From Tannockella kyphosi (lineage in GTDB: Bacteria > Bacillota_I > Bacilli_A > Erysipelotrichales > Coprobacillaceae), in assembly GCF_021054785.1 (NCBI RefSeq), contig NZ_CP088239.1, positions 1,800,001-1,832,000 of the forward strand: 32,000 bases of DNA, read 5' to 3'. A program made the position numbers and the translations under genes. Numbering within the stretch: the stretch's first letter is position 1; each line of letters begins with the position of its first letter. Below are positions 10,474 through 28,996 of this stretch, piece after piece. The notes beneath the pieces are model-generated. The model saw nothing but the letters and a program-made list of their open reading frames with translations, was not told the DNA's origin and did no database searches.

Positions 10474-10496
10474 AGACCCTAAAAAATTAGACTTTC

Positions 10497-10527: not shown

Positions 10528-10691
10528 TACTGTCCGAGCAATTCTATATTCAATCAAATTCATCCAAGACAGTTCTTGCTTAATTCCACAATGATTATAA
10601 TGATAATATATTTTTTTCTATCGCCTGCTTTAGCTCTTCATAACAATAAACATTCGTCTCTTAAATAATCTTGCACATTTTTTTCGATTTA

Positions 10692-11882
<1,191 letters not shown>

Positions 11883-12046: not shown

Positions 12047-12123
12047 AGTATATCTTGTACAACATCAAAATATCTCCTACATTATGATCTGTAATTAAGA
12101 AACAGGAGACAACAAATAGAAAT

Positions 12124-12200
12124 ACGGGACAATACCATACATATTATTACTAAAAACGGGGCAATATAAAGAATACAGTATTGAAAAAACGGGGCAAATA
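12124..12200 (+). promoter_or_regulatory. Three direct ACGGG(G/A)CAA(T) boxes upstream of the DUF4143 ATPase gene
   Basis: ACGGGACAAT (12124), ACGGGGCAAT (12156) and ACGGGGCAAAT (12189), spaced 32-33 bp apart, about three helical turns. One box is also present in copy a (1956..1973). Confidence 0.4.
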
Positions 12201-12229
12201 ATATATTGTATAGTTGGAGGTATAAATAT

Positions 12230-13576: not shown

Positions 13577-13693
13577 AATAGCTAATATAAATCGAGTAGA
13601 GAGCTTTATCAAGTTTAGAGCTTTGTTCTTTCTAAAATGAATAGAAATAGCAACTATAGCACTAAGTTATACACTTTGTGTTAGATCATAAAT

Positions 13694-13730
13694 AAAAGGA
13701 CGAGGTATCATATCAGATTTCGTCCTTTTA
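13694..13730 (+). terminator. Terminator after the ATPase gene (copy c counterpart of 2088..2119)
   Basis: AAAAGGACGA ...15-nt loop... TCGTCCTTTT, then a T-rich tail. Confidence 0.55.
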
Positions 13731-13835
13731 AATTTTATTTTCTTTTTGAAATTTTTGAATAGAATGTTTATCAATATATGGCATTCCACTATTATTTCAA
13801 TCTTTAAATATAAGCTGTTAAATTTAATTATCCCA

Positions 13836-14309
13836 TCAATTTTTATAAGAAATTAACGTCGCTAACAAACCTTCAAAATCAGTATTTCCATCAGATTGAA
13901 TCAAACCCGTATCCGCTTTAGAAAATAGATTCGACAGTATCATTGTAGATATCTTTTCATCAATCTTTCCGACATTTAGTAAAGATAAATAAAAATAGGT
14001 TAACACATATTTTTGCTTGTATTCTTCGCTAAGATGTTTTGAAGAAATTATCATTTTTATAAAAACTCTAAGAACATAGATAATTAAACATACCATCGAG
14101 AGCAAAATGACACTACTGTAAACAGGCATATCTTTACTAAATAATGTTATTGAAAAAACAGTTTCATTTATTGTTATCTCCGGTGTTAAAATAAGACCTA
14201 GCAACATCATCAATAAAACCGACAAGGCTAACGTTGCAACACTCCAGTGAATTGTACTTTTTTCGTACTCTTTCGATTTTTCATCAAGAAAGTTAGCCGG
14301 CTCTTCCAA
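13836..14309 (-). CDS. Hypothetical membrane protein (157 aa, TTG start; possibly a fragment of a longer gene)
   Basis: Two clear hydrophobic segments (ATLALSVLLMMLLGLIL and SSVILLSMVCLIIYVL). I recognised no family motif. The start codon and RBS are weak. Confidence 0.35.
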   Translation of the reverse strand: MEEPANFLDEKSKEYEKSTIHWSVATLALSVLLMMLLGLILTPEITINETVFSITLFSKDMPVYSSVILLSMVCLIIYVLRVFIKMIISSKHLSEEYKQKYVLTYFYLSLLNVGKIDEKISTMILSNLFSKADTGLIQSDGNTDFEGLLATLISYKN

Positions 14310-14424
14310 CTTTAATTTCCTTTGTTTTAAAAAATAGAAGATGAAATAATTACTACGAATTATACATTCACAGAAATTACACTTTCTTTTATCAAACCTA
14401 TCAGTTGCCTAATTACATTCTTTT

Positions 14425-14782
14425 TTTTATATGCTATTAAAGAATTTGAAATTCTTACTAAATATTGCACTGTTACAATTGATGATGTAGAAGATAAAGT
14501 AGACTATGGAACTGTAGTCACATTAGATACACTAACTAAAGATGGTTACACATTTGATGGATAGATCAAGATGGTGAAGTATATACAAGTGAAGTAACAG
14601 TAACTTCTGACTTAGTTCTTTCTTCTACATGGACTAAGGATGTAGATAGCACTGATGGTGACACAGATACTGATGATGTAGTAGATACTGGAGATACTAA
14701 TAATGTATTACTATTCACATCATTAAGTATTGATGCTCTTGCATTAATCTTAATAGATATGAAAAAAAGAAGTAGAGTTTAA
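14425..14782 (+). pseudogene. C-terminal remnant of a cell-wall-anchored surface protein (Listeria-Bacteroides/Flg_new repeat plus LPXTG-like sorting signal)
   Basis: ...KDGYTFDG, frameshift at 14562-14563, then DQDGEVYTSEVTVTSDLVLSSTWTKD...VVDTGDTNNVLLFTSLSIDALALILIDMKKRSRV*. There is no N-terminal part or start codon. Confidence 0.6.
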
Positions 14783-14806
14783 TAATACTAATTAAAATAA
14801 GTGCTA

Positions 14807-14834
14807 AAAGTAGAGTCTATTGACTCTACTTTTT
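14807..14834 (+). terminator. Terminator after the surface-protein remnant
   Basis: AAAAGTAGAGTC tatt GACTCTACTTTT, a perfect 12-bp stem with a T tail. Confidence 0.75.
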
Positions 14835-15009
14835 AAATAGATAATTTGTTCAATTAAAGCAGCATCCTACCCTTTAACTTACTTATTTCTCTTGAATGTC
14901 TTTCTAGTATTAGTTTAATACTCTCTAATGCTTTATTATACAACGTATCCATACTATACAAGTTCATTTTCCTTCTTCTATTATTATTTTGGCTTTAAAA
15001 GATACTGAC

Positions 15010-15202
15010 GTACAGCAATTTCATCAGCATGATTCTTATGAACACCTGTAATTTCTCCTTTATCCTCCACTCCAGAAAACAATCGTCCTCCCTCAGCATT
15101 AGTCATCAAAAGAATAGCTTCAATAAACTCATTATCTTTTAGTTGTTTAACATCCCTTTGATATTTGATTTTTAATAACTACTTGCTAGGTATAATTCAC
15201 AT
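15010..15202 (-). pseudogene. N-terminal remnant of a COG2865 (AlbA_2/Schlafen-type) gene, paralogue of 24995..26641
   Basis: Reads M*IIPSK*LLKIKYQRDVKQLKDNEFIEAILLMTNAEGGRLFSGVEDKGEITGVHKNHADEIAV against the intact MRIIPSKETLKIEFKSDVKELKDNELIEAVLGMANTEGGQLFLGVEDDGVITGVHKKHADEIGV. It has two nonsense codons and is truncated after about 64 codons. Confidence 0.8.
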
Positions 15203-15225
15203 AAAAACACCCACTAAACGCACTC

Positions 15226-15271
15226 TAACGCGCGCGTGTGTTTATTTCAATAATTTTAACGCGCGCGTGTG
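15226..15271 (-). promoter_or_regulatory. Degenerate copy of the (CG)n double-box promoter, upstream of the COG2865 pseudogene
   Basis: TAACGCGCGCGTGTG occurs at 15226..15240 and 15257..15271, offset 31 bp, the same spacing as 26665/26696. On the minus strand TTGAAA, 17 nt, TAGAGT is embedded. Confidence 0.6.
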
Positions 15272-15317
15272 AAAGTGCGCAATGTAAACATTACTTTTAT
15301 AATTACCTATCTCAATT

Positions 15318-15382
15318 CTTTATAAACATCTTTCTATCTCTTTTCTATCACTATTCTCTTTCTATCACTGATAGAATACAAT
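15318..15382 (-). promoter_or_regulatory. Remnant of the tetO-like promoter/5' end of an 18586..19875-type gene
   Basis: Near-identical to 19868..19950, including CTATCACTGATAG (15362..15374) and the ATGTTTA start. An 18-bp deletion lies between two GATAG repeats, and no gene body follows. Confidence 0.65.
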
Positions 15383-15425
15383 TTTTCATTCTTTTTTAAA
15401 ACAAAAAACTCTCCTAAGAAAGTTT
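15383..15425 (-). repeat. R1: truncated array repeat (left flank plus terminator hairpin only); terminator of the ATPase gene
   Basis: tttttcattcttttttaaaacaaaaaACTCTCCTAAGAAAGTT, hairpin 15407..15424. Homology ends 10 nt from the stop of 15435..16637. Confidence 0.75.
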
Positions 15426-16758: not shown

Positions 16759-16887
16759 CTAAAATATATTTATTTCGTTATGCTTTTAGAATTTCAACAA
16801 TAACATTCCTGTCCCTTAAAGTCGTGACAATAAATCAAGTAATCTTATTTGTAATATTCTTTAGCTTCTTCTATAACTTTATTTATA

Positions 16888-17066
16888 AATAAAAAAACTC
16901 TCCTAAGAGAGTTCAAGTTCATGCATAAATCTAACAGTTTGAAGTATTATAACTATCTTTTTGTTATAAATATTCGTTATAAAACAAGAGTTTTTATAGT
17001 GTTTGCATCTTACGAGCATCTTAATCAAATGCACTCAAACAAAGTTTACATCGTATTATGTTCATA
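16888..17066 (-). repeat. R2: full array repeat (subfamily A core; right arm shared with R5)
   Basis: Hairpin AACTCTCCTAAGAGAGTT at 16896..16913, then gttcaagttcatgcataaatctaacagtttgaagtattataactatctttttgtta...tttttatagtgtttgcatcttacgagcatcttaatcaaatgcactc...cgtattatgttcata. It ends 4 nt from the VOC stop codon. Confidence 0.85.
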
Positions 17067-17069
17067 TTT

Positions 17070-17564
17070 TTAATAAGCACCCTTAGAATAAGTCACTTCA
17101 TAGCTATGCGTATAAATTTCGAATACAATACCAAATGGATCTTCAACATAACACATTTTATATGGTTTTTCATTTGGATAGTATTCCTTGATAGGCATAC
17201 GTTGTTTACCACCATGAGATACAATTTTTTCAATCATACCCTCAATATCTGGATCCTGCACAGAAAAATGGAAAAGACCTGTATTTTTGAATTCAAATGG
17301 TTGCGTTTTTTTATCGTTATCCACAAACTCAAATAGTTCTATTCCAATGGCGTTTGAAGTGACCATGTGAGCAATTTTGAAATCTCCATGCCCTTTACCG
17401 AATACTTCCTCGCACATAATTCCGATTGCAGAAGTATTTTCCTCTTTGATAACTGATGGTTCCATTACAACATACCAACCCATTACCTCGCTATAAAACT
17501 TAACCGCCCGTTCTAAATTAGACACAGACAAACCTATGTGTGAAAATGCTCTTGGATAATTCAT
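17070..17564 (-). CDS. VOC-family (glyoxalase/bleomycin-resistance/dioxygenase fold) protein, 164 aa
   Basis: FSHIGLSVSNLERAVKFYSEVMGW... and ...LFHFSVQDPDIEGM...DPFGIVFEIY are the paired beta-alpha-beta-beta-beta module signatures. Confidence 0.75.
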   Translation of the reverse strand: MNYPRAFSHIGLSVSNLERAVKFYSEVMGWYVVMEPSVIKEENTSAIGIMCEEVFGKGHGDFKIAHMVTSNAIGIELFEFVDNDKKTQPFEFKNTGLFHFSVQDPDIEGMIEKIVSHGGKQRMPIKEYYPNEKPYKMCYVEDPFGIVFEIYTHSYEVTYSKGAY

Positions 17565-17638
17565 TTTCGTACCTCCTTTCGAGATACTTTAATAATATAG
17601 TAATATAAAGATTAAGAGAATAACGTACTTTTTTGTAC

Positions 17639-17980
17639 CTATGTATTATCAATCATTATTTCATTTTCACTAGCATATTCTTTTGAAAAATCACAAAATC
17701 CCTCCACAAGAGGAATAAGTCCTTTGTAGCGCGGTGAGAGTGAATATACTACATTAAGTGGTTTCTCACATACCACAGTCCTTACTAATATATTGCTTAA
17801 CTCAAGCTCCTTTAATTGTGTGACAAGCATTTTATGTGTTATATCAGGGATACCTCTTTGCAGTAAAGAAAAACGATTATCTCCATTTAAGATATGCCAC
17901 AAAATCCTCATTTTCCATTTCCCACCTAGCAAATCCATTGATAACAGCAATGCACAAGTGTATTGTTTTTTTATCTTCAT
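17639..17980 (-). CDS. HxlR-family winged-helix transcriptional regulator (113 aa)
   Basis: C..LLSMDLLGGKWKMRILWHIL.G..RF..L.R.IP.IT.KMLVTQLKELE...IV.R is a typical HxlR/MarR-like signature. It lies directly upstream of the VOC gene. Confidence 0.8.
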   Translation of the reverse strand: MKIKKQYTCALLLSMDLLGGKWKMRILWHILNGDNRFSLLQRGIPDITHKMLVTQLKELELSNILVRTVVCEKPLNVVYSLSPRYKGLIPLVEGFCDFSKEYASENEIMIDNT

Positions 17981-18245
17981 CTTACATTCCTTATTATATA
18001 AATTTTAATTGTTCTTACTTTTTTATTAACATATTTTATTGTAAAACAAATACCAACTACAATCAATGTATACAAACCATATATTTGAGTATTAGTATAT
18101 CCTATATAAATCAGTATTGTTATAGTAGTGAATAGACTTATACATACAATATCCTACAAATGCACCATTACAAATATTTTGCATACCGTTCTTGTTTCAT
18201 AACAAATCAGGCTTCATCTAATATAAACACCCTATATATGCAAAT

Positions 18246-18430
18246 TTTATCATACTAGACTTACGCATTCAATGATGGATAACAAATTAAAAACTCTCCT
18301 AAGAGAGTTCAAGTTCATGCATAAATCTAACAGTTTGAAGTATTATAACTATCTTTTTGTTATAAATATTCGTTATAAAACAAGCATTTTTATAGCATTT
18401 GCATATTATGAACAACATAACAACATCGTA
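18246..18430 (-). repeat. R3: full array repeat (subfamily A core; left flank and right arm shared with R6)
   Basis: Left flank ttatcatactagacttacGcattcaatgatggataacaaat, hairpin 18292..18309, core as in R2, arm ...gcatattatgaacaacataacaacatcgtac. Confidence 0.85.
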
Positions 18431-18477
18431 CTAATTACAATAATGGTTATTCAATATTCATTGATTGTTTTATTTTA

Positions 18478-18512
18478 AACGCACGGATAAACGCACGCGT
18501 GCGTTTATCGCA
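18478..18512 (-). promoter_or_regulatory. Orphan CG-box element (promoter-only remnant) containing a 22-bp perfect palindrome
   Basis: AAACGCACGGATAAACGCACGCGTGCGTTTATCGC is colinear with ctAAACGCACtctAACGCGCGCGTGTGTTTAT at 15212..15244. The palindrome ATAAACGCACGCGTGCGTTTAT is at 18487..18508. No downstream gene follows. Confidence 0.5.
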
Positions 18513-18585
18513 TTACTAACATATCTAAACATACATCACTCTTTTTGGTTTGTCAGATCACTAATAAATATTAGAAAAATACTGT

Positions 18586-19875
18586 TTATAACTGATCTGC
18601 TAGCATGTATTTTGTGTTTTTTCCATTTCCTACTTTTACAATAATACCTAGTTTAAGCATTTCACCAATAATACTGTTAGCTCTGGTTACTTTAACATCT
18701 AACAATTCTTCTATTGATAGACGTGTGATATATTTGTTATTTTTTAAATATTCAACTACTAAATTATGTGTTTTTGATAAACCTATTGTGTCATTATTCA
18801 TATTTGGAAGAGTAACTCTAAATGCACCATCTGCATTTTCAAATACTGGTTTATTGATGCATTTATTGTAAGAACTCATTATTTTACCAACACCAATACC
18901 ATAGGATTCAATTAATTGCATTCTATAAAATAATGCTGCTAATTTTTCATTTCTTGCTTGTGATGCACCTAAAAGAATAGCTTCTATCGACATCCCAGAA
19001 ACAAGGCCTCCTAAAGAAACAATCTCAATTTTATTGGAATACACATTAATAAAAGTATCTCCACTATAACTATAATCTCGATGTACGATTGCATTTAATA
19101 ATGCTTCTCTTAATGATAATTCCGGATAATCTTTTTGATCAATTCTTAATAAGCCATCAAATGATGCACTTGTTCTATTATATAACTCAAGTGTAGCATA
19201 TGCATCATTTAATTGTTTAAAAATAGAACCTTTAAATTCTTTTCTATCTATAAAAACACTTTTATCATTGCCTTGAAATACAGCAAGTTTAATAGAATGA
19301 ATACATTCATCTGATGTTAGTAAAGCAAGATTTGTATACATTTCATCATTATTGATAAAACCTAAATTATGCATTTGAACCTGACCAAACTCTAGGTTCC
19401 TTTTTTTCATTTCTTCATTCATTGTATTGAAATGTAAATTTTGTTCAATAGAACGACTATTCTCAAAAGAATCTCCATCTGTTAATTTTATCATCTGGCG
19501 AATTGCATCTTGTGATGCAGGAGCAGAAGATGTCCCTTGTCTAACGTAGACACCTGATGATTTCATTCCCTTATCTTTAAGATAATAAGGTTTTCTTGTT
19601 CCCTCTTCAACAGTTACTTTGATGATATCTTTATTTTCTTCTACTAGTGATTCCACACGTATAAACATCATAGCATCAGGTAAGATATTATCACGAAGAA
19701 GATTCGTTATCGCTAACATAACTTCATCAACATCATTTATTCCAACCACTTCACCACTATCAGCAATTCCTTCATATATTGTTCCACCATCACAGTTAAT
19801 AAATGCAATGACTTCTTTCTTCAAATCTTGTGTATATTTTTCTTTTAACTCTACTTTATAACCCTCTTTAAACAT
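18586..19875 (-). CDS. COG2865-type protein: AlbA_2 (Schlafen-like) N-domain + HATPase_c_4 + C-terminal wHTH (429 aa), paralogue 1
   Basis: N-terminus EGYKVELKEK...NCDGGTIYEGI, central LREALLNAIVHRDYS, C-terminus ITRLSIEELLDVKVTRANSIIGEMLKLGII. RBS AAAGGAG. Confidence 0.8.
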   Translation of the reverse strand: MFKEGYKVELKEKYTQDLKKEVIAFINCDGGTIYEGIADSGEVVGINDVDEVMLAITNLLRDNILPDAMMFIRVESLVEENKDIIKVTVEEGTRKPYYLKDKGMKSSGVYVRQGTSSAPASQDAIRQMIKLTDGDSFENSRSIEQNLHFNTMNEEMKKRNLEFGQVQMHNLGFINNDEMYTNLALLTSDECIHSIKLAVFQGNDKSVFIDRKEFKGSIFKQLNDAYATLELYNRTSASFDGLLRIDQKDYPELSLREALLNAIVHRDYSYSGDTFINVYSNKIEIVSLGGLVSGMSIEAILLGASQARNEKLAALFYRMQLIESYGIGVGKIMSSYNKCINKPVFENADGAFRVTLPNMNNDTIGLSKTHNLVVEYLKNNKYITRLSIEELLDVKVTRANSIIGEMLKLGIIVKVGNGKNTKYMLADQL

Positions 19876-19879
19876 CTTT

Positions 19880-19945
19880 CTATCTCCTTTCTATCACTAT
19901 TCTCTTTCTATCACTGATAGTATCATGTTTTGTGATAGAATACAA
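19880..19945 (-). promoter_or_regulatory. Promoter of paralogue 1 with a tetO-like palindrome and reiterated GATAGAAAG half-sites
   Basis: Minus strand: TTGTAT (19945..19940), 17 nt, TACTAT (19922..19917). The palindrome CTATCACTGATAG (19908..19920) overlaps the -10 element. Further half-sites lie at 19932..19938, 19891..19897 and 19880..19884. Confidence 0.55.
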
Positions 19946-19960
19946 CTTTTTATATAAAAT

Positions 19961-20127
19961 TATCCCCTTTTCATTCTTTTTTAAAACAAAAAACTCTCCT
20001 AAGAGAGTTTAAGTTTATGCATAAATCCAACTGTTTGGAGTATTATAATTATCTTTTTGTTAATGACTAAAGTACATAAAATAAGAGTTTTTATAGTGTT
20101 TGCATCTTATAAGTATCCTAACTATAG
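19961..20127 (-). repeat. R4: full array repeat (subfamily B core; arm shared with R0)
   Basis: Flank tatccccttttcattcttttttaaaac, hairpin 19992..20009, core gtttaagtttatgcataaatccaactgtttggagtattataattatctttttgttaat..., arm gcatcttataagtatcctaactatag. Confidence 0.85.
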
Positions 20128-20224
20128 TCATACAACAATAGTGCTTTTTTACTAGCACATACTGATATAACACGTAATCTTGAGTATATCACCCAAAAAT
20201 GAAGACTAAAAATAGTTAATCCAT

Positions 20225-21670
20225 TTAGCTATAATACTTCTGTGATTTACTCTTAGGTTTTTCCGGTAATGTCATTTTAAGATTTCCACTTTCTATCAAT
20301 GGTAAAACAATTGTATTCATTGCATAATACTGTGTTTTGCCTAAATACTTAGCTAACTCAGATCTTGTTCTCGGTGTTTTACAAAATTCAATAAGTTCTT
20401 CAACCTCGTTTACCTCTGTTTTTCCACTATTAGATATTTTGAGTTTAGACATGACACTATTCTTTAGAATCACAGTAAATGTTCCTCGTCTATTAACAAA
20501 TTCAGGAGGACAAAGACTCATTTTTTCCATTTCATAGTGAATAGTCGGAATACCAGAATATCTATTTTCTGCTGCTTTTTGTACCTCCAGTATATGGGTC
20601 AATGTTTGGTTTCTTGTATCTGCATGAGCCTTTCCTAAACCATCAACAGTAATTCTACCGTAAAGACCTCCTTCATTTGTAATTTCAAGTCGATCACTAT
20701 ACATTACAATTCTTATAGGTGCCCCTTCTGTATGAATACTATAATCTCTATGCATTAGAGCATTTAATATAGCTTCCCTGACTGCTTTAATCGGGTATTC
20801 TGGTTTATCATGTCGTTTTCCTTCATCATCAATAATTGTTTTTTCTCTCATGTTTCTTTTTACAAAAGCAACAGCTTCTTCTAACATTTCAGCGATAGTA
20901 CCCTCTATTCTCTTATTAGAAATAAATCGCTCTCCTTCATCTCCTGTCTGACCCATGATAGTTCCAGGAACAACTACTGCAGTGATGCAGAGTTGTGGAT
21001 AAGTAGCTTGTGGATATTTTGAAAAACACATTATCCCTGAAAAGGTTGGATTTCCACCCTTTATCACTCCCATTAAATGAAGGATTTCATCGTTTGAAAG
21101 CCTTGAAACATTAGGTTTATTTTCTTTTATATTTAGAATATACTTTTCAAGTAATATATCATCTAGTATAGAAAAATCAGTAGAATCAGCAATTCTAATA
21201 TCATCCTTAATTCTTCTATGATATGCATCATAGCTGTAAATTTCATAATCACTCATAGGTTCATCTGCTTCTGCCACACGAATATATGAACCTTTAACCT
21301 TACCTGCACCTTTATAGTAAACAGGTCTATCTGCAATGTCTACTCCAGGAATTTCAGCTGAAACAACCATCTTATTTTCAATCATTGCAACTGTAAATAG
21401 TGGCCTAACTGCAATTTCCATTTGTTTGCATTGTTCAGCAACTTTATGTTGTAAATCTTGAGGATCGTAGACACCAACTATTTCAAAATCCTTTTTCTCA
21501 TCTAATCCAAATAGGATAGTACCTCCACCATCTTGGTTTGAGAAACTTGAAAGTGTATCATATAATTTTGTGAGTGTTCTCTTTTGAACTGCTTTCACTT
21601 CAATATACTGCGTTTCACAATTATATTTTTGAATAGTTTTTACCAAACTAACTAAATCATCTATTTGCAT
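20225..21670 (-). CDS. COG2865-type protein (AlbA_2 + HATPase_c_4 + wHTH, 481 aa), paralogue 2
   Basis: ETQYIEVKA...NQDGGGTILFGL, VREAILNALMHRDYS, C-terminal RTRSELAKYLGKTQYYAMNTIVLPLIESGNL. RBS AGGAGGG. Confidence 0.8.
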   Translation of the reverse strand: MQIDDLVSLVKTIQKYNCETQYIEVKAVQKRTLTKLYDTLSSFSNQDGGGTILFGLDEKKDFEIVGVYDPQDLQHKVAEQCKQMEIAVRPLFTVAMIENKMVVSAEIPGVDIADRPVYYKGAGKVKGSYIRVAEADEPMSDYEIYSYDAYHRRIKDDIRIADSTDFSILDDILLEKYILNIKENKPNVSRLSNDEILHLMGVIKGGNPTFSGIMCFSKYPQATYPQLCITAVVVPGTIMGQTGDEGERFISNKRIEGTIAEMLEEAVAFVKRNMREKTIIDDEGKRHDKPEYPIKAVREAILNALMHRDYSIHTEGAPIRIVMYSDRLEITNEGGLYGRITVDGLGKAHADTRNQTLTHILEVQKAAENRYSGIPTIHYEMEKMSLCPPEFVNRRGTFTVILKNSVMSKLKISNSGKTEVNEVEELIEFCKTPRTRSELAKYLGKTQYYAMNTIVLPLIESGNLKMTLPEKPKSKSQKYYS

Positions 21671-21731
21671 AATACAACCCTCCTAAGTATATTTACTTAT
21701 AATATGCTATTTTAAACAAAATTATTCAATA

Positions 21732-21807
21732 AAATAAACAAAATTATCTATATAAATTTTGTTTATTTATAATTTTAATCTAATTTTACTTATTATTTTG
21801 TTTATTT
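21732..21807. promoter_or_regulatory. AAATAAACAAAATT inverted repeat plus a third half-site upstream of paralogue 2
   Basis: AAATAAACAAAATT (21732..21745), 9 nt, AATTTTGTTTATTT (21755..21768), a perfect 14-bp inverted repeat. A further ATTTTGTTTATTT lies at 21795..21807. Confidence 0.4.
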
Positions 21808-21914
21808 CTGATATTTTTAAAGTATTTTTCTTTATTTTTTCTTTACATAATTTTCTATCACAATTTTCTTTCTACCATTACAGAATACATCTTCCGCTAT
21901 ATATAATTCTTCTT

Positions 21915-22130
21915 TTATCCCTATTTGTTCATTTTAAAACAAAAAAAGAACTCTCCTAAGAAAGTTCAAGTTTATGCATAAATCCAACTGTTTGGAGTAT
22001 TATAATTATCTTTTTGTTAATATATATCCTTTATGAAATAATGTTTTTATAGATCCTTGCATCTTATAAGCATCTTAATCAAATGCACTCAGACAAGTTA
22101 AATACTAGTTTACTACGTATTATGCTCATA
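21915..22130 (-). repeat. R5: full array repeat (subfamily B core; right arm shared with R2)
   Basis: Flank ttatccctatttgttcattttaaaac, hairpin 21948..21967 (GAACTCTCCTAAGAAAGTTC), arm gcatcttataagcatcttaatcaaatgcactcagacaag...cgtattatgctcata. It ends about 12 nt from the stop at 22142. Confidence 0.85.
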
Positions 22131-22141
22131 CTCCTCAGCAC

Positions 22142-22651
22142 CTATGATTTTTTGCGAGTTAGAATTATACCAACAATCGACCCAATTAATGCAATTGGTG
22201 CAATTCTTACAAATAACCATTCAATGCCGTGTAAAATTGTTCCTGCAACAGCTAAATCAGGCTTACTATAATTCCATCCCAAATAAGAACTATCTAAGAA
22301 ATATAAAATCACAAAAATTGCTACAATAATTGCACACACCGAAATAAATATCCAGTGAACTAGTTTTCTGCTTCTTACACTTTTTTGTGACAACTGTAAG
22401 TTAATAACCTCTAATTTTTCTGAAATTACTTTGAGATCACCTTCTCTTTCTTCTGCTATAGTTTCACCAAACATTGTGCTTACTGGAATTTCAAGAACTT
22501 CTGACATAGTTACTAACGTTTCAGAATCTGGAACTGATAATCCTTTTTCCCATTTTGAAATAGTTTGTCGTACGACATTCAACTTAATAGCAAGTTCTTC
22601 TTGTGAAAGTCCTTTTGATTTTCTAATAGTTTTAATATTTTCACTTAGCAT
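22142..22651 (-). CDS. XRE-family HTH protein with C-terminal transmembrane segments (169 aa)
   Basis: MLSENIKTIRKSKGLSQEELAIKLNVVRQTISKWEKG (HTH_3). Hydrophobic segments WIFISVCAIIVAIFVILYF and IAPIALIGSIVGIIL. ATG at 22651 follows AAGGAGG. The track start at 22726 is unsupported. Confidence 0.8.
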   Translation of the reverse strand: MLSENIKTIRKSKGLSQEELAIKLNVVRQTISKWEKGLSVPDSETLVTMSEVLEIPVSTMFGETIAEEREGDLKVISEKLEVINLQLSQKSVRSRKLVHWIFISVCAIIVAIFVILYFLDSSYLGWNYSKPDLAVAGTILHGIEWLFVRIAPIALIGSIVGIILTRKKS

Positions 22652-22799
22652 AACAAATACCTCCTTTGTTTGTACTTTGATTTTAGCAGATATTTGCCCG
22701 TTGCCACAAGCAACGCATATTAACATTCACCATAATAGGCATAAAGGGTATATAAATAATCTTTAGTTAATTATAACATTCTTTTCGTTTATGACAAAC

Positions 22800-23816
22800 T
22801 CACTTAGTACCTATCGTCTTTTCTAATTCTAACAAGTTATATTCTTTATGAAGTTCTCTTCTTAATTCTTCTTCACTAGGTAAGTATAGTTTATATCTAG
22901 ATGCATATACGTTACTATTTTTAGGTAACGTATATTTTACTAAGCTTTCACTTTTATCCACGCATAACACAATACCAATAGGTGGATTATCTTCTTTACT
23001 ACTTACTTTTTCTTCATAGTAGTTTACATACATTTGCATTTGTCCTAAGTCTTGGTGCGTTAAGTCCCCTATTTTTAAATCAATAATAACAAAACACTTT
23101 AATAAATAATTATAGAATAATAAGTCAATATAAAAATGTCTCCCATCAAAGGTAATTCTTTTTTGTCTTGCTATAAAAGAGAAACCTCTTCCTAATTCTA
23201 ATAAGAATTTTTGTAAATGAGAAATTAAAGCACTTTCTAATTCTTTTTCACTAAAAGATGCCTGATCAGGAAGTCCTAGAAACTCTAATACATAAGGATC
23301 TTTAATAATATCACTTGGTGATTTTAATAATTCATCTTCATCTGACAAGTTATCTTTCATAGTTTTCCCATCTTTACTAGATAATAACCTTTCATAATAA
23401 AAGGAGTGAATTTGTCTTTCTAGTTGCCTAGTACTCCAGTTAGAATTTACACATTCTTCTTCATAAAAATTTCTAGCTTTTTCATTTTCCACTCTCATTA
23501 ACAAACGATAATGAGTCCAACTCAATTCGCCACGCAGTGCGTGGCTTTTTGAAAAAGTTAAATAAAATTGTCTCATATCTTTGAGGCTAGAAACCTTAAA
23601 CCCTGTTCCAAACTCTGCAGACAACTCTTTTGATATAGTTTTAATTAAATCACTCCCATACTCTGCTTTTTCCTTTCCGCCTTGTTTTTCTACTATCGTT
23701 CTACCAATTTCATAATATGCTTGTACCATAGTATTATTAGTTACTTGATATACTTTATCTCTAGCTTGATAGACAATATTTCTTATATCATTTACTATTT
23801 CTTTTTCTAATTCCAT
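22800..23816 (-). CDS. DUF1016/YhcG-family PD-(D/E)xK nuclease-like protein (about 338 aa)
   Basis: The N-terminal part QAYYEIGRTIVE...GK...YG..LI..LS..L matches the YhcG N-domain. C-terminus IDLLFYNYLLKCFVIIDLKIGDLTHQDLGQMQMYVNYY carries D...D-x-K. ATG at 23816 has RBS AGAGGAAA. An alternative start lies at 23852. Confidence 0.75.
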   Translation of the reverse strand: MELEKEIVNDIRNIVYQARDKVYQVTNNTMVQAYYEIGRTIVEKQGGKEKAEYGSDLIKTISKELSAEFGTGFKVSSLKDMRQFYLTFSKSHALRGELSWTHYRLLMRVENEKARNFYEEECVNSNWSTRQLERQIHSFYYERLLSSKDGKTMKDNLSDEDELLKSPSDIIKDPYVLEFLGLPDQASFSEKELESALISHLQKFLLELGRGFSFIARQKRITFDGRHFYIDLLFYNYLLKCFVIIDLKIGDLTHQDLGQMQMYVNYYEEKVSSKEDNPPIGIVLCVDKSESLVKYTLPKNSNVYASRYKLYLPSEEELRRELHKEYNLLELEKTIGTK

Positions 23817-24177
23817 TACTAGTTTCCTCTTTTCTTTTGTTCTTTTCATCATATTATTTAATTACTTTCTCATTAAGTTATACGTATTTTACTAAACAAT
23901 TACTTTTAAATAATAAAAAGCCTTTCTTCTAACTTCATAATATTGTGAAGTAGTTAATAGACTTTTTACTGAAATTCTTATTTAATTGTTTGAAAAATGA
24001 GTAAATCTATGTATTTATATAAAAACCCCTTTTTTATAGTTTATTTAGTTCCTGAATTTTGTACGATAAGGACCAAAAATAGCTTAAAATTGTGTTTGTT
24101 TTAGTACAAAAAGATAACTTTTCGTTCAAAAGGAAAATTATGTTGATTATATCTATGCAATTTGTTTCGGCCTATTA

Positions 24178-24346
24178 TTATACAACTTCTACCAATCTCA
24201 CCTTAGCATCAGGATCATCGTTGTAAGGTATTACTGCCTTGACGTGTTCTTCTACTTCCCTATTCTTATTGTACTACTACTGCTAAATAAGTTATCATCG
24301 TCACATCTCATAGTTTTTATTTAAGTATCTTTTTTGTTTTCATCAT
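24178..24346 (-). pseudogene. Frameshifted remnant of a small secreted/lipoprotein-like gene
   Basis: A strong RBS AGGAGGAATT precedes ATGATGAAAACAAAAAAGATACTTAAATAA, only 9 codons. Downstream frames continue as ...MRCDDDNLFSSSSTIRIGK and EVEEHVKAVIPYNDDPDAKVRLVEVV*. Confidence 0.3.
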
Positions 24347-24409
24347 AATTCCTCCTAAATAGCGATATGTTTGTTCTCTGTTTTTAGAACTTACTAGTTA
24401 GAAAGTATC

Positions 24410-24436
24410 AAAAAAGACTAGAAATTAATCTAGTCT
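24410..24436 (-). terminator. Terminator of the small membrane protein gene
   Basis: Minus strand: AGACTAGA ttaatt TCTAGTCT followed by TTTTTT, about 35 nt after the stop at 24470. Confidence 0.7.
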
Positions 24437-24469
24437 AATCCACAGGGTATGCTAATATTTTTTATATTC

Positions 24470-24718
24470 TCAATGATTAACTAATTGAATAATTCCTGCT
24501 ATAACATTTAAACTAGCAGCTATTAAAAATAATGATTTCATATATATATTTTTCCCTGTAATTTTATCGTTAAAGAACATAAATATAATAAGTACCGATA
24601 GACATAAAGGATTTAATCCAGGAATCATATTTCCAGTTATTACATAAATCACAGAAAGAGCTATTACTATTACACTAAAAACAATAGTACTAATGTCCAA
24701 AATTTTATCTTTTTTCAT
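24470..24718 (-). CDS. Small membrane protein (82 aa, three predicted TM segments)
   Basis: MKKDKILDISTIVFSVIVIALSVIYVI..., ...LCLSVLIIFMFF..., ...LFLIAASLNVIAGIIQL. ATG at 24718 follows GAGGTG. Confidence 0.6.
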   Translation of the reverse strand: MKKDKILDISTIVFSVIVIALSVIYVITGNMIPGLNPLCLSVLIIFMFFNDKITGKNIYMKSLFLIAASLNVIAGIIQLVNH

Positions 24719-24752
24719 TGTTTCACACCTCACAAAATATAAAAAGCAAATC

Positions 24753-24942
24753 TTATCATACTAGACTTACTCATTCAATGATGGATAACAAATAAAAAAG
24801 AACTCTCCTAAGAAAGTTCAAGTTTATGCATAAATCCAACTGTTTGGAGTATTATAATTATCTTTTTGTTAATAACTAAAGTATATAAAATAAAAGTTTT
24901 TATAGAGTTTGCATCTTACGTGCAACATAACCACAGACATAC
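24753..24942 (-). repeat. R6: full array repeat (subfamily B core; left flank and right arm shared with R3)
   Basis: Flank ttatcatactagacttacTcattcaatgatggataacaaat, hairpin 24800..24819, arm gcatcttacgtgcaacataaccacagacatac. Confidence 0.85.
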
Positions 24943-24994
24943 AATGACGCCATGTATAATAGTGATTTTGTTGTTCTTAAAATAGTTATCTCCC

Positions 24995-26641
24995 CTATTT
25001 TAATTCATATCTCGATGAGTTTCCTTTTCTAATCAACTCTAGTTTCCCACTTTTTACAAGGTTTTTCAATATTCGGTACGCTTGATCTTTAGTTACTCCT
25101 AGTAATTCTACTACATTATTACGAGTAACATATTTTTGCTGTTTAGCAAGTTTCAGTACTAATTCATCATATTTTAAACGATCAATACCTGTCTGCCTTA
25201 CATAACCCACAACATTATCTTGAGCTTTATACACTTTTACACTTAGCATGTAAACCCTTGATTTACCAGTTCCATTCGCTTCCACAAGTCCACTCTCTAT
25301 TAATTTTTCAATATTTGATTTTGTTCTAGATTCACTAATATGCATAGTATCAGACAATTCTTGTATTGAAACTCTTTTTTGACTTTGTAATGTTGACAAA
25401 ATCAATAAAGAATTGATTGGGAGCATTCTTCCAATTCTATTCTCTTCATTAGACAACATCTTAGCAAATGCCAGGTCTGGATCAGCTCTTTGTACAAATA
25501 ACTTTACATAGCTACTTGTCGACTCTGAATAATCAGGAAATGGACGTCCATAAACGATAGACCCTTCATATATACGATCTATCCCTCGACCAGTTCGTTC
25601 TGCTAACCCTATTCTTTTCATTGCATCTGCCAAAGCATGATTTCGACCGTGTGGTTCAACTGTTAATAAATTATGTAAGTTAACCCCTTCAATAAATCCT
25701 CCTGGACTACTTATTGTTAATCCCTCATCTTCTATTGCTAATCGCACCCTTTGTAATATTGAGTAATCTCTATGACAAAATGCGTTTACTAAACCTTCCC
25801 TAAATGCTGATTCTGAAAACTCTGGAATTGGTATCCTAAATAATCCCGATTCCATTTCACGCTCTGGATTCCATGCCTTTAAGTAGTTTTCAAATATTTC
25901 AAACGTTGCTAGTAAAGGTTTTGAAAACTGTTCATTTACCCTAACTTGTGTTCCTTCAAGAACTTGAAAACTTGATTTTGCAGTAGGCATCAACTCTTCC
26001 AGCCTATCTTCTTTTCCTATCAATAACATGCCTGTTACTGTTGGATATGTTACACCATTTTCTTCTTTAGTTATTCTTAAAGCTTTATCTAAGTCTTCGT
26101 CTGTCAATTCAAGAAGCAATTTGTCCCCTTTTCGCATCTTAATAATGTTTCTAAGTCGCACTCTCTCATTTGGATTTAAATCATTCACTGAGGCATCTGT
26201 AATTATTTGTGCTGAAAAATCCAACAAGCTAAGCTGAGATAAACGTGTATTTATCTCATGTGGATACATTGGTATATTTTCAGGCGAACCATCCAACTTT
26301 AGTCTTCTTCGAAGAATTTTCCCTTCGCTAGAAGCTACAATCGTTCTACTCATAGGTATATCAATCCTTAAAACTTGTTTTCCTTCTTCGATAATTATTT
26401 CCGCTTTAGAAGATACAGACGGAACAGTTTTATTAGCAATTAATGCTACTACACCAATTTCATCAGCATGTTTTTTATGCACACCTGTAATTACTCCGTC
26501 ATCCTCAACACCCAAAAATAATTGTCCCCCCTCGGTATTCGCCATTCCAAGAACAGCTTCAATAAGCTCATTATCTTTTAGTTCTTTAACATCACTTTTA
26601 AATTCAATTTTTAATGTTTCTTTGCTGGGTATAATTCTCAT
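24995..26641 (-). CDS. COG2865-type protein (AlbA_2 + HATPase_c_4 + two C-terminal wHTH, 548 aa), paralogue 3
   Basis: SKETLKIEFKSDV...NTEGGQLFLGV, FREGLVNAFCHRDYS, wHTH-like SIQELSDTMHISESRTKSNIEKLIESGLV and VTRNNVVELLGVTKDQAYRILKNLVKSGKL. ATG at 26641 follows GGAGGTG. The track start at 26689 lies inside the promoter. Confidence 0.85.
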   Translation of the reverse strand: MRIIPSKETLKIEFKSDVKELKDNELIEAVLGMANTEGGQLFLGVEDDGVITGVHKKHADEIGVVALIANKTVPSVSSKAEIIIEEGKQVLRIDIPMSRTIVASSEGKILRRRLKLDGSPENIPMYPHEINTRLSQLSLLDFSAQIITDASVNDLNPNERVRLRNIIKMRKGDKLLLELTDEDLDKALRITKEENGVTYPTVTGMLLIGKEDRLEELMPTAKSSFQVLEGTQVRVNEQFSKPLLATFEIFENYLKAWNPEREMESGLFRIPIPEFSESAFREGLVNAFCHRDYSILQRVRLAIEDEGLTISSPGGFIEGVNLHNLLTVEPHGRNHALADAMKRIGLAERTGRGIDRIYEGSIVYGRPFPDYSESTSSYVKLFVQRADPDLAFAKMLSNEENRIGRMLPINSLLILSTLQSQKRVSIQELSDTMHISESRTKSNIEKLIESGLVEANGTGKSRVYMLSVKVYKAQDNVVGYVRQTGIDRLKYDELVLKLAKQQKYVTRNNVVELLGVTKDQAYRILKNLVKSGKLELIRKGNSSRYELK

Positions 26642-26660
26642 AAAAACACCTCCTAAACGC

Positions 26661-26710
26661 ATTATATCGCGCGCGCGCTTTAATTTCAATAGTTTTATCG
26701 CGCGCGCGCG
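26661..26710 (-). promoter_or_regulatory. Consensus sigma-A-type promoter whose spacer and upstream flank are (CG)n boxes
   Basis: Minus strand: TTGAAA (26689..26684), 17-nt spacer ttaaaGCGCGCGCGCGa, TATAAT (26666..26661). Plus-strand direct repeats TATCGCGCGCGCGC (26665..26678) and TATCGCGCGCGCGCG (26696..26710) are offset by 31 bp. Confidence 0.65.
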
Positions 26711-26790
26711 AAAGAACGCGTAACATCTTCATTTTTTACTTTATATTTATCAATATAATTTAGCACTCCTAAGATGTTATTCATTCTATT

Positions 26791-26895
26791 TATCCCCTTT
26801 TATTTTTTCTTTAAAACAAAAAAAGAACTCTCCTAAGAGAGTTCAAGTTTATGCATAAATCCAACTGTTCGAAAAAATAATAATTATCTTTTTGA
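26791..26895 (-). repeat. R7: native rpsI stop codon, 3' UTR and rho-independent terminator; prototype of the array repeat
   Basis: tatccccttttattttttctttaaaac, hairpin GAACTCTCCTAAGAGAGTTC (26825..26844), then aagtttatgcataaatccaactgtt, identical to R4-R6. ataattatctttttGAGAAC includes the rpsI stop (26884..26886) and its last codons (FSKR*). Confidence 0.85.
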
Positions 26896-27282
26896 GAACT
26901 GTGGTGCACGTCTTGCTGCTTTAAGTCCGTATTTTTTACGTTCTTTAGCACGAGCATCACGAGTAAGGAATCCAGCTGCTTTTAATGTTGGTCTATAATC
27001 ATCTCCAGCTTGTAATAAAGCTCTTGAGATACCATGACGGATTGCACCAGCTTGACCTGTGTATCCTCCACCATATACATTAACACTAACATCAAATTTT
27101 TCACCTGTGTTAGTTAATTCTAAAGGTTGATTTACGATCATTAATAAAACATCTGATGATAAATAATCTTTAGCAGTTTTACCGTTAATAACGATATTAC
27201 CAGTACCTGGAGTTAAGATTACTCTAGCTACTGATGATTTTCTACGTCCAGTACCTCTGTATTGTACATTTGCCATTGTCAT
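26884..27282 (-). CDS. rpsI: 30S ribosomal protein S9
   Basis: ...[16 protein letters not shown]...[18 protein letters not shown]...[27 protein letters not shown] is unmistakably S9. The start may be the second ATG at 27276. Confidence 0.95.
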
Positions 27283-27290: not shown

Positions 27291-27728
27291 TTACCCTTTA
27301 AATTTCATTTCTTCTGGTTGTTGTGCTGCATGAGGATGAGTACTTCCTGCATATACATGAAGTTTCATTCCTTGTTTTCTTCCTAATGTGTTATGAGGTA
27401 ACATACCTTTAACAGCTGCTTCCACAAATCCTGTAGGATCTTTTTCTTGGAAAGTTCTAGCAGTTTTAACTTTTAAACCACCTAACCATCCAGAGTGACG
27501 GTAATATTTTACACTATCTAATTTTTTACCAGTCATTACTACTTTTTCAGCATTAATGATAATCACGTTATCTCCTGTATCTACATGTGGTGTAAATGTA
27601 GGTTTATGTTTACCTCTTAATACTACGGCAACTTCTGAAGCTAAACGACCTAAAGTTAAGTCAGTAGCATCAATTACGTACCATTTTCTTTCAATTGTGG
27701 CTTCATTAGCCATTGTTGTTTGTCTCAT
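27291..27728 (-). CDS. rplM: 50S ribosomal protein L13
   Basis: [62 protein letters not shown] matches the Bacillus L13 N-terminus almost residue for residue. Confidence 0.95.
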
Positions 27729-27849: not shown

Positions 27850-28911
27850 TTATTCTACTACTTCTCTACCTTCTATTAGCTTTAATCCCGTCATTTCTTC
27901 TATCTTAAATTCATAAAAATGGTTATAAAAACATGCTCCCATCGCTATTTTCTCACCATCCTTCAAATAATAATAACCTATCTTATCTCCATAATCATAA
28001 TCATCAAAATCATAAGAGATAACATACTCACTACCATCTATCCCTATAAAAGAATAATAGCCTGCATCTCCTTCTACAGGATAACCTTCTCTTACTAGTA
28101 TTTCATACAAAGAACTAAAGCTTATTCCATAACCATACGTACTCCCTACTATATCATCATAACAAACAATGAATTCTTCTTCATAATCATCTTCGTCTTC
28201 TTGTTCTCCATAATAGATATATACACGATGATAATAACCATCTAGAGCAGTAGCTATTTCTTCTTGAGTAAATGTTTCTATTACTTCATAACGATAATCT
28301 AATGCACATTGAATAAACTCTGCTAACATTTCTTCATAACTAGTTTCATAGCTAGTCATTCCAGATATGTTACCAGAAGTATCGTCATAGGTTTCTATTG
28401 TGTTTGCTAGTAGGTGATCATAAGTTAAATAGTAGCCAATAGATAATCCTTCATATCCTAATTGTTCAAAGGTTGATTGAAGTATTTGAATGTCATTGTA
28501 ACATGCTAGTAACTCTTCTTTGTTTGTATAAGACCCTTGTATATTAGCAGAAAATAAGCCCTCTTCATCTATAGAAGATACTACCTCTAATCTCTCTAAC
28601 ACCGGAAGGTCATCATAAATAAAATCAATAACTGCCGCGTTATAATCATTCCACAAACTATTTGAAACCCACTCATTGCCCCAATAAAAATCATCAATTA
28701 CATGAAACACTAAGCCAGTATCATCTACTGTTACTGTCCATACGCTATCTTCATATCCATCTTCCTCTATTCGAATATAACTTGTAGAAGATACTGTTAT
28801 ATCAGTTAGATTTAATTTCTCTTCTACTGCATTTTTAATATCCTTCTTATCATAATCTTCTGTACAACCTGTCAGAAGGATTAATAATACAAATAGCATC
28901 CCTTTTTTCAT
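27850..28911 (-). CDS. Hypothetical lipoprotein (353 aa; acidic and Tyr-rich)
   Basis: MKKGMLFVLLILLTGC is a signal peptide with lipobox LTGC. ATG at 28911 follows AGGGAGAAATATC. I recognised no family. Confidence 0.7.
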   Translation of the reverse strand: MKKGMLFVLLILLTGCTEDYDKKDIKNAVEEKLNLTDITVSSTSYIRIEEDGYEDSVWTVTVDDTGLVFHVIDDFYWGNEWVSNSLWNDYNAAVIDFIYDDLPVLERLEVVSSIDEEGLFSANIQGSYTNKEELLACYNDIQILQSTFEQLGYEGLSIGYYLTYDHLLANTIETYDDTSGNISGMTSYETSYEEMLAEFIQCALDYRYEVIETFTQEEIATALDGYYHRVYIYYGEQEDEDDYEEEFIVCYDDIVGSTYGYGISFSSLYEILVREGYPVEGDAGYYSFIGIDGSEYVISYDFDDYDYGDKIGYYYLKDGEKIAMGACFYNHFYEFKIEEMTGLKLIEGREVVE

Positions 28912-28996
28912 GATATTTCTCCCTTGTAACATCTCTCTATACAAGGATTATACATCTTTCTACAGAAAAATACCGCTCTATTTTTAAGAAAATAAA

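Follow-up and report, generated by a model that had tools for sequence, protein, structure and literature searches.

The 32,000-nucleotide (nt) stretch of Tannockella kyphosi DNA analysed here (NZ_CP088239.1, positions 1,800,001 to 1,832,000; the window below) has a base composition of about 30% G+C and carries the ribosomal protein genes rplM and rpsI on the minus strand. Nearly all genes downstream of rpsI lie on the same strand. In order from the 3' end of rpsI, they encode a 564-aa protein of the COG2865 type; a membrane protein of 87 aa with a nuclease-like YhcG/DUF1016 and an HTH_3 protein; two more COG2865 proteins of 481 and 429 aa; an HxlR regulator with a glyoxalase; an AAA_14/DUF4143 ATPase; and the remnant of a truncated COG2865 gene. 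These groups are separated by a repeat of about 150-190 nt. The repeat consists of copies of the 3' end of rpsI joined to other parts, and the whole array probably arose by stepwise insertion at that gene end.

Copies of the rpsI 3' end

The window contains the hairpin AACTCTCCTAAGARAGTT at seven places, namely 15407, 16896, 18292, 19992, 21949, 24801 and 26826, and six of these occurrences belong to full repeats. The hairpin at 26826 is the native rpsI terminator (copy R7), while the one at 15407 (R1) consists of hairpin and flank only. Every full copy contains ATTATCTTTTTG, the reverse complement of the rpsI end (Lys, Arg, stop), and since this matches the last codons and the stop of the gene, the repeats were identified as copies of the rpsI 3' end. 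The final 11 nt of rpsI, its 3' untranslated region (UTR) and its terminator, about 75 nt in all, recur in five further copies in direct orientation, and the homology of R7 to every internal copy begins at 26894. Because the direct repeat begins with the last 11 nt of rpsI, the gene itself stays intact. All copies of the rpsI end have one orientation, and the units between them are spaced at 1.4-2.9 kb.

In the orientation of rpsI, a copy is laid out as a distal arm (S1), S2 TAAGATGCAAACACTATAAAAACTCTTATTTTAT, the 12-nt S3, segment X CAAAAAGATAA, the UTR core, the terminator with its T-run, and a flank. The arm spans about 85-115 nt and contains two AAGATGC/ATGCAA repeats 11 nt apart, followed by TTATTTTAT and then X; the form of the repeat in the window's own arms is TAAGATGCA. 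Six of the hairpins were called as minus-strand terminators, in a scan that found 13 terminators against 2.7 expected. The palindrome ATTTATGCATAAAT is part of the 3' UTR according to RNA folding, and flank type F2 is promoter-like, reading TTGAAT-17-TAAAAT in its R3 copy (promoter scan). Rfam and tRNA scans of the window gave no matches. The exact repeat sequence was absent from the genome and metagenome collections in pattern scans, and blastn did not find the window's repeat in related loci, plasmids or phages. The coordinates of all parts are collected in Table 1.

Table 1. Features of the rpsI locus and of the inserted units, by position in the window
Feature	Position	Strand	Basis or detail
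rplM (L13), upstream operon partner of rpsI	27291..27728	-	Pfam Ribosomal_L13, 1.5e-46
rpsI (ribosomal protein S9)	26884..27282	-	Pfam Ribosomal_S9, 1.9e-48; translation ends PQFSKR, stop
Segment X, native (final 11 nt of rpsI including stop)	26884-26894	-	reads CAAAAAGATAA; left edge of every repeat
R7, native ~75-nt repeat unit (X, 3' UTR, intrinsic terminator 26825-26844)	26819..26894	-	terminator scan, RNA fold
Flank F1 after R7	26783-26818	-	alignment
Unit 1 cargo: COG2865-type protein, 564 aa (Schlafen AlbA_2, HATPase_c_4, wHTH)	24995..26689	-	Pfam
R6, chimeric attachment (att) site	24746..24950	-	arm-profile match 24950-24852, E=1.4e-16
R6 parts	arm 24869-24950; X 24858-24868; terminator 24800-24819; promoter-like flank F2 24746-24799	-	core B
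Unit 2 cargo, whole	22142..24733	-	three genes, Pfam
Unit 2 genes	87-aa membrane protein 24470-24733; YhcG/DUF1016 PD-(D/E)XK 22800-23852; HTH_3 membrane protein 22142-22726	-
R5	21906..22130	-	alignment, terminator scan, arm profile
R5 parts	long arm 22017-22130; X 22006-22016; terminator 21948-21967; F1 21906-21947	-	distal part of arm common with R2; core B
Unit 3 cargo: COG2865-type protein, 481 aa	20225..21670	-	Pfam
R4	19949..20142	-	alignment, terminator scan, arm profile
R4 parts	arm 20060-20142; X 20049-20059; terminator 19991-20010; F1 19949-19990	-	core B
Unit 4 cargo: COG2865-type protein, 429 aa	18586..19875	-	Pfam
R3	18240..18434	-	alignment, promoter and terminator scan, arm profile
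R3 parts	arm 18360-18434; X 18349-18359; terminator 18291-18310; F2 18240-18290	-	core A
Unit 5 cargo: HxlR-family regulator 17639-17980, glyoxalase/VOC protein 17070-17564	17070..17980	-	Pfam
R2	16860..17066	-	alignment, terminator scan, arm profile
R2 parts	long arm 16964-17066; X 16953-16963; terminator 16895-16914; flank F3 (unique)	-	core A
Unit 6 cargo: AAA_14 + DUF4143 ATPase, 411 aa	15435..16670	-	Pfam
R1, partial: terminator hairpin and F1 flank	15383..15425	-	repeat search; 98% identical to 19968-20010
Truncated COG2865 unit, recombinant	15011..15377	-	repeat search

Alignment of the copies showed that the arm, X and the core are all absent from R1. The truncated COG2865 unit beyond it is itself composite: the 5' leader (15318-15377) resembles the unit 4 leader at 93%, and the (CG)n boxes together with the N-terminal part of the coding region (15011-15280) resemble unit 1 at 81%. 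Farther out, 25 kb from rpsI, an HTH_3-DUF3990 gene and a 161-aa, DUF3791-like partner at 236-1593 match the first rpsI unit of a related locus, L069, with 73% nucleotide identity across 1.39 kb. No arm or rpsI mimic was found beside this pair, and the end of the array was therefore placed near 15.0-15.4 kb.

A patch directly after the stop mimic was seen at 20042-20069 and at the same place in R6 and R5. There these copies read TTATAATAC, where the native rpsI copy has TTATTATTTT, and together with TAGTCA 16 nt upstream the patch resembles a consensus -10 box. A transcript of about 50 nt from the patch to the terminator of the repeat is conceivable; such a predicted arrangement was not seen in other lineages.

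Mosaic structure of the repeat

Segment identities were computed from MAFFT alignments of the copies, one segment at a time. In the flank, R6 and R3 agree at 40 of 42 positions, as the original prediction made from this DNA had proposed, and every other pair agrees at 16-25. The flanks of R7, R5 and R4 have GTTTTAAA..GGGGATAA in common; R1, which had been grouped with them as a carrier of TATCCCC, lacks that motif and has only the TTTTCATTCTTTTTTAAAAC part. In the core, R3 equals R2 and R6 equals R5 (37/37 each), R4 matches R5 and R6 at 36 of 37 positions, and about 8 fixed differences separate subfamily A (R2, R3) from subfamily B (R4-R6). These subfamilies are those first described, apart from the membership of R7 in B: its core is B-like except for the patch directly after the stop codon.

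The distal arm groups the copies in another way. The pairing of R5 with R2 is robust in S1 (28/31). A second proposed arm pair, R3 with R6, falls to background at 19/31, a value that R6 also reaches with R4 and with R2. A third had joined R4 to a further copy, R0, for which the best candidate is GTATCCATACTATA near 14945, a 12/14 match to the R4 motif lying inside the COG2865 remnant. No significant R0 copy was found in 14600-15010, and since the best score lies below the shuffled mean, this match was attributed to chance. Two groupings were absent from the earlier description: S3, the 12 nt beside the stop mimic, is identical in R3 and R2 (12/12), with R6 and R4 sharing 10/12 and R5 standing apart, and a 3-nt indel after the hairpin divides {R7, R6, R5} from {R4, R3, R2}.

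These groupings do not fit one tree. In the pairwise homoplasy index (PHI) permutation test, applied to columns homologous in all copies with the flanks excluded and to only 5 or 6 sequences, p was 0.0002 (w=4) and 0.002 (w=8), with 27 informative sites and 36% of site pairs incompatible. At least five recombination events are required in the repeat set, and adding the flanks strengthens the signal. Separate alignment of the segments, the check suggested at the outset, thus leaves incompatible groupings in place of one shared grouping, and the view of the repeats as mosaics holds.

Within single copies the switches can be followed directly. R2 is a three-way mosaic along its length, R5-like (0.96), then R4-like (1.00), then R3-like (1.00). 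Breakpoints were located between the two AAGATGC repeats, between S2 and S3, somewhere from S3 to the hairpin, and at the T-run; those within the arm are less than 40 nt apart. Mapped against the palindrome, as had been suggested, they concentrate neither there nor at any other one point, and none of them has to fall within it. Core variants track position in the array: the neighbour distances sum to 26, where permutations average 40.7 (p=0.014). The spread of the breakpoints and the position-dependent cores suggest that, besides site-specific joining, gene conversion or homologous exchange took place. A comparable case is found in locus L083, where copy 4 combines the UTR start of copy 3 with the flank of copy 1.

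The disagreement of arm and flank needs no crossover inside the repeat, since the arm belongs to the upstream unit and the flank to the downstream unit. Taken unit by unit, flank and arm agree better: both units that start with F2 end in an arm of the R2/R5 type. The suggestion that the 5' ends of the units are class-specific applies to the COG2865 units only, as F2 precedes two unrelated units. A duplicated two-unit block (R6/R5 against R3/R2) was considered and rejected, the genes being unrelated or only 24-30% identical.

The same figures decide the fate of the simplest alternative, in which one ancestral unit of gene and repeat was duplicated in tandem and the copies then diverged: three units do share the COG2865-type domain architecture, but with COG2865 proteins only 24-30% identical, the other units unrelated and the segment groupings compatible with no single tree, duplication is refuted, as had been anticipated in favour of hybrid attachment sites or cassette shuffling, and it retains next to no probability.

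Arms, integrases and arrays in related genomes

The S9 protein of the window is 92% identical to that of uncultured Erysipelotrichales metagenome-assembled genomes (MAGs) and 91% identical to that of a Thomasclavelia MAG. Related loci compared with the window are given L-numbers. The same architecture 3' of rpsI was found at 7-9 of them (L005, L069, L072, L083, L088/L091, L090 and L102), all of Erysipelotrichales type, with S9 73-92% identical to that of the window and different cargo in each. In these arrays, copies of the rpsI end and terminator are each preceded by an arm and lie 1.2-8.4 kb apart; about 20 units were seen across 8 arrays, 1.2-3 kb long with one of 8.4 kb. Their cargo includes AbiEi/AbiEii, RhuM/Fic, DUF3990 with its partner, AAA_14/DUF4143, YhcG (often as pseudogenes), SatD/DUF3307, ToxN and, in the 8.4-kb unit, a sugar phosphotransferase system (PTS) block.

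The arm is conserved across lineages. Alignment brought out a pair of direct repeats of the form AAGATGC or (G)TATGCAA(C) with a spacing of 11 nt. All 13 arms have the proximal ATGCAA at -56 to -62 nt relative to the stop codon, whereas the background frequency is 0.1 per 130 nt. A profile of the arm matched array junctions only, in 2.08 Mb and always on the rpsI strand; it also found arms outside its training set (L090, L005), and in the window it matched every internal copy and nothing else. An attC-like fold was considered for the arm and rejected, since RNAalifold returned 0 consensus pairs on 13 arms and the inverted repeats seen by eye in the arms of R4 and L005 are not general. Arm motifs in viral contigs were set aside as chance matches in coding DNA.

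The left boundary of the copies is equally constant. Whatever the lineage, the internal copies become homologous to rpsI at one and the same stretch of 11-12 nt, (T)CAAAAnGnTAA. In internal copy 1 of L102, the 3' UTR and terminator are of the L083 type (92% over 61 nt) and the match runs from X onwards, although the terminator of L102's own rpsI is a different one. Unit 3 of L102 and the first post-rpsI unit of L090 share X, the UTR and about 330 nt, and L090 contains units amounting to about 3.4 kb that are absent from L091, placed after the rpsI terminator and ahead of a downstream block common to both. These junctions indicate that units have moved between genomes and between array positions and were joined at X. 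Judged from these sequences, junctions at X are the behaviour expected of a site-specific recombinase targeting the last codons of rpsI.

A candidate for such an enzyme lies beside rpsI in several relatives. In L098/L094, a motif screen and Pfam identified a tyrosine integrase of 359 aa, 166 nt downstream of rpsI and convergent with it. Homologues with 48-54% identity adjoin rpsI in L039, L011 (Holdemanella), L089 and L082, and partial genes or C-terminal remnants occur in L085, L086, L095, L097 and L099 and inside the first unit of L090. Between the terminator and the integrase gene of these relatives stand three direct repeats in 11-nt phase: AGGACAC in L098/L094, TATGACAC in L039, TATGCAAC in L089, L086, L090 and L085, and AAGTAGCA, AAGAAGCA and AATATGCA, then AAGATGCA, in L082. 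Their motifs match those of the distal arms of the arrays.

Two of these loci are informative about the kind of element involved. L082, the closest relative (S9 92%), carries at rpsI the integrase, a TnpV-like gene, a Mob_Pre (MobV) relaxase and AAA_25. By its gene content this is an integrative mobilizable element, and because integrase and Mob_Pre relaxase genes lie together at rpsI, it was assigned to the rpsI kind known from S. agalactiae. In the first unit of L090, which is bracketed by repeats of X and UTR, a P' arm (three TATGCAAC repeats) is accompanied by ToxN, an integrase remnant of 98 aa and a P arm, and the unit appears as a clear, visible decay intermediate.

Three further features of the relatives were recorded. 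In L083, at 13009-13198 and 14297-14486, a 190-nt arm without ATGCAA repeats is present in two copies 93% identical. The arms of L005 (about 11950-12040 and 13200-13290) carry TTGTGCTGAG and two variant repeats AAGATACA in the same 11-nt phasing. The L083-type and the L005-type arms both follow RhuM/Fic units, suggesting that more than one integrase subfamily uses rpsI. A small repeated unit occurs in L091 (1631-1760), L090 (11614-11743 and 13861-13990) and L089/L086 (near 10590-10660). It has a consensus promoter, TTGCAT-17-TATAAT, a predicted transcript of about 60 nt and a terminator; it lies near the ToxN gene in L090 and may be a ToxI-like antitoxin RNA.

Origin and content of the array

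The reading favoured here, with a probability of roughly 0.65, is tandem accretion of six integrase-less units resembling cis-mobilizable elements (CIMEs) at the 3' end of rpsI, together with gene conversion among the copies. It starts from the observed anatomy and mosaic of the copies, the conserved arm, the common left boundary at X, the heterologous cores in other arrays and the integrases at rpsI in relatives. Small units would have been laid down one by one through site-specific recombination, so that an internal repeat would combine the upstream unit's P arm, the direct repeat of about 75 nt and the downstream unit's 5' flank. The recombinase would be a heterobivalent tyrosine integrase of the family adjoining rpsI in relatives, acting in trans on the window array or since lost. 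As described for streptococci (PMC5357655; PMC5704250), an element would enter the rpsI 3' end and decay to a CIME that keeps its att sites, and the next element would enter an att site, building a tandem array whose internal sites are chimeric; Pavlovic et al. reportedly set out an ICESt1/CIME model in 2004. From these features we infer the action of this integrase family on these arms, the order of events and any present-day mobility of the units.

The mosaic would then have two sources. Arm, core and flank would sort differently because they stem from different partners, and copies that are 85-100% identical would in addition swap patches by homologous recombination or gene conversion, which would yield the breakpoints within the arm and the cores that resemble those of array neighbours. 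Accretion alone does not explain either of these last two features.

Several observations weigh against accretion of decayed elements. The 32 kb contain no integrase, relaxase or remnant of one by Pfam or by tblastn with three integrases (E<=1). Only 1 of the roughly 20 units, that in L090, has an integrase trace, while random decay would leave assorted integrase and mobilization pseudogenes. The flanks start exactly where the terminator ends, which is more orderly than decay. No recognisable P' arm was detected in the window units when their flanks were compared with the P' arms of L082, L089 and L085; the best p, 0.046, is not significant after 21 tests, and flank F1 (TATCCCC) was accordingly rejected as a vestigial P' arm. 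What suggests that the integrase binds the arm is similarity of motifs. Exact scans for the repeat pattern in the genome and metagenome collections gave no match, and look-ups of L13 and HxlR returned only 1-2-kb Logan contigs that stop at repeats.

The orderly flanks, and the recurrence of two flank modules before unrelated genes, leave room for a different reading, in which the units are minimal mobile cassettes of cargo, P arm and rpsI mimic that never had an integrase of their own. A co-resident mobilizable element would lend its integrase, and cassettes would be captured and shuffled at rpsI in an integron-like manner through double-stranded, arm-type sites. The shortness of the units in all eight arrays, the near absence of integrase traces, the strong conservation of the arm across lineages and a cargo typical of integron arrays (PDC-S01, PDC-S02, AbiE, RhuM/Fic, DUF3990/3791, ToxN) are in keeping with it. 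Yet no identical cassette was found in two contexts: the AAA_14/DUF4143 ATPases of different arrays are 20-35% identical and not orthologous, so no recent transfer of an identical cassette can be demonstrated. The integrase is not adjacent, the arm has no attC-like fold, single-arm sites are an unusual substrate for arm-dependent integrases, and the first unit of L090 displays the decay route directly. Dedicated cassettes are considered an unlikely explanation of the array.

Homologous recombination by itself is less probable still. Here the repeats would be portable blocks of homology through which units are gained, lost or swapped in a RecA-dependent manner, for example after DNA uptake, with no enzyme now acting site-specifically. 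The several breakpoints spread along the repeat, the likeness of cores to their neighbours, the mosaic copies in L083 and the sufficiency of identical stretches of 60-85 nt for RecA all agree with this. It leaves unaccounted for, however, the first duplication of the rpsI end, the same 11-12-nt left boundary in every lineage, the heterologous 3' UTRs that join exactly at X and the phased arm motif kept across lineages with differing cores.

Misassembly was also weighed, in the form that some arm-flank combinations, and thus the unit order, were misjoined at near-identical cores. R5 and R6 are identical over about 80 nt, a length that could mislead a short-read assembler on arm-flank joins, and Logan contigs break exactly at the repeats. 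Two short-read contigs of this organism stop at a repeat or shortly ahead of one, and contig L167, 99% identical to the unit 5 region, begins inside R3. Exact look-ups of S9, YhcG, glyoxalase, COG2865a and COG2865c gave no matches for a same-species comparison. Against this, the window is contiguous over seven copies, similar mosaics occur in independent assemblies (L083, L102), and switches so closely spaced within the arm are not creatable by assembler error. The unit order could be altered by such error; the mosaic inside the arm could not, and misassembly is a very improbable source of the arm-flank combinations.

Tandem accretion, as in the preferred account, has a precedent in streptococci, where the rpsI 3' end is the target of tyrosine integrases, with tandem accretion and CIME formation (PMC5357655; PMC5704250), and where an integrative mobilizable element at rpsI has been described in Streptococcus agalactiae (PMC5704250). 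Both cases have the rpsI 3' end as target with a direct repeat restoring the gene end, a tyrosine integrase in related loci (the integrase and MobV genes of L082 are of the IMESag-rpsI types) and chimeric internal att sites separating the units (Coluzzi et al. 2017; Guedon et al. 2017). In accordance with the definition of a CIME, the window keeps att sites and contains no integrase, relaxase or remnant of either; an integrase and relaxase between att sites, as in IMESag-rpsI-type elements, are absent from it and present in L082 (Phage_integrase, Mob_Pre, AAA_25). Unlike the streptococcal case, the window has six successive 1.4-2.9-kb units with no integrase or mobilization trace and no intact element in 32 kb, belongs to the Erysipelotrichales (Coprobacillaceae), has a conserved single-arm site with no recognisable P' arm, and carries mostly single-gene phage-defence candidates. 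In the literature searched, rpsI accretion was not described for Erysipelotrichales, nor was any account found of units of 1.4-2.9 kb that lack an integrase, have a conserved single arm and follow one another in long runs.

The array resembles an integron in its small, mostly promoter-poor and mostly co-oriented units, each ending in a site of about 100-190 nt, in its position downstream of one fixed site, and in a cargo rich in toxin-antitoxin and defence-type genes. It differs in having no adjacent intI (rplM-rpsI lie upstream, and no recombinase occurs within 32 kb) and in a site conserved in primary sequence, with phased direct repeats like those of double-stranded arm-type sites, a 0-pair fold and no Rfam match; attC sites are imperfect palindromes whose structure, not sequence, is conserved. 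Each unit, moreover, has its own terminator, and some units of related arrays are inverted (L072, L090). As to the single promoterless genes under one common promoter that make up integron cassettes, some flanks of the window are promoter-like by prediction. With lambda-type att sites it shares phased direct repeats in both arms (three beside the integrase gene, two in the distal arm), a short core where the target gene ends and, in relatives, an integrase gene adjoining one arm. The identity region of about 75 nt is unusually long for such sites, however, the internal sites of the window keep one arm only, and the Pfam arm-binding N-terminal domain was reported only in the unrelated integrases of L078 and L063.

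As to cargo, PADLOC matched YhcG to PDC-S02 (6.8e-145) and the AAA_14/DUF4143 ATPase to PDC-S01 (1.5e-157), and the COG2865 proteins showed weak similarity to pAgo-associated modules. On these matches the array was read as largely a string of candidate single-gene phage-defence systems, each with its own copy of the rpsI terminator. Beyond the array, at 6033-14309, more defence-type genes were noted: a RelB-like antitoxin, a MazG-like gene with a Schlafen group 3 helicase (PADLOC AbiO/Nhi-like), a second AAA_14/DUF4143 ATPase on the plus strand and a DUF6161 fragment. The largest unit contains, at 23853-24469, 617 nt without an open reading frame of at least 60 aa, with a terminator-like hairpin at 24415-24436 (minus strand); the stretch could be a decayed gene or a lost junction.

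Several sequence motifs were noted at the COG2865 units. Alternating (CG)n boxes, striking at 30% G+C, occur at 26667-26711, 15228-15270 and 18486-18509. The first COG2865 gene is directly preceded by a pair of CGCGCGCGCG-type boxes at a distance of about 21 nt from each other, and the truncated copy has such a pair in front of it as well; the third COG2865 gene is followed downstream by a perfect palindrome of 24 nt, GATAAACGCACGCGTGCGTTTATC. These elements may be operators or sites prone to hairpins or Z-DNA. A palindrome, TCTATCACTGATAGA, was found in the unit leaders at 15361-15375 and 19907-19920, with a weaker copy near 21851-21877 and several half-site repeats TTTCTATCA nearby. Its central 13 nt presumably equal the tetO operator core. 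This suggests a site for a TetR-like or similar repressor common to COG2865 genes whose proteins are only ~24% identical.

On the other side of rpsI, an intact insertion sequence (IS) with a DDE_Tnp_1_6 transposase (29097-30680) lies between rplM and a conserved upstream ThiF-family gene. The same insert, not seen in relatives, holds a 364-aa protein of no known family (27850-28944). Fragments of the IS3 family (HTH_21, rve) lie at 11091-11853.

The patchwork repeat is explained, under accretion with gene conversion, as a chimeric attachment site each part of which can be assigned to a partner. The rpsI 3' end is an insertion hotspot in Erysipelotrichales, as in streptococci, and one that collects strings of very small integrase-less units with candidate defence genes (PDC-S01, PDC-S02, Schlafen-like COG2865, AbiE, ToxN, RhuM/Fic). 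Integration and accretion at rpsI are established in streptococci. Because the arrays break short-read assemblies, they are probably under-reported in MAGs. The arm motif (AAGATGC/ATGCAA repeats in 11-nt phase) and the tyrosine-integrase family form a testable pair. Integrons are not known in this phylum. If the units are mobilised as cassettes and are not dead remnants, the arrays would represent integron-like gene capture there, and if the cassettes are dedicated ones, a store of single-gene phage-defence candidates in Gram-positive gut bacteria, an analogue of the integron.

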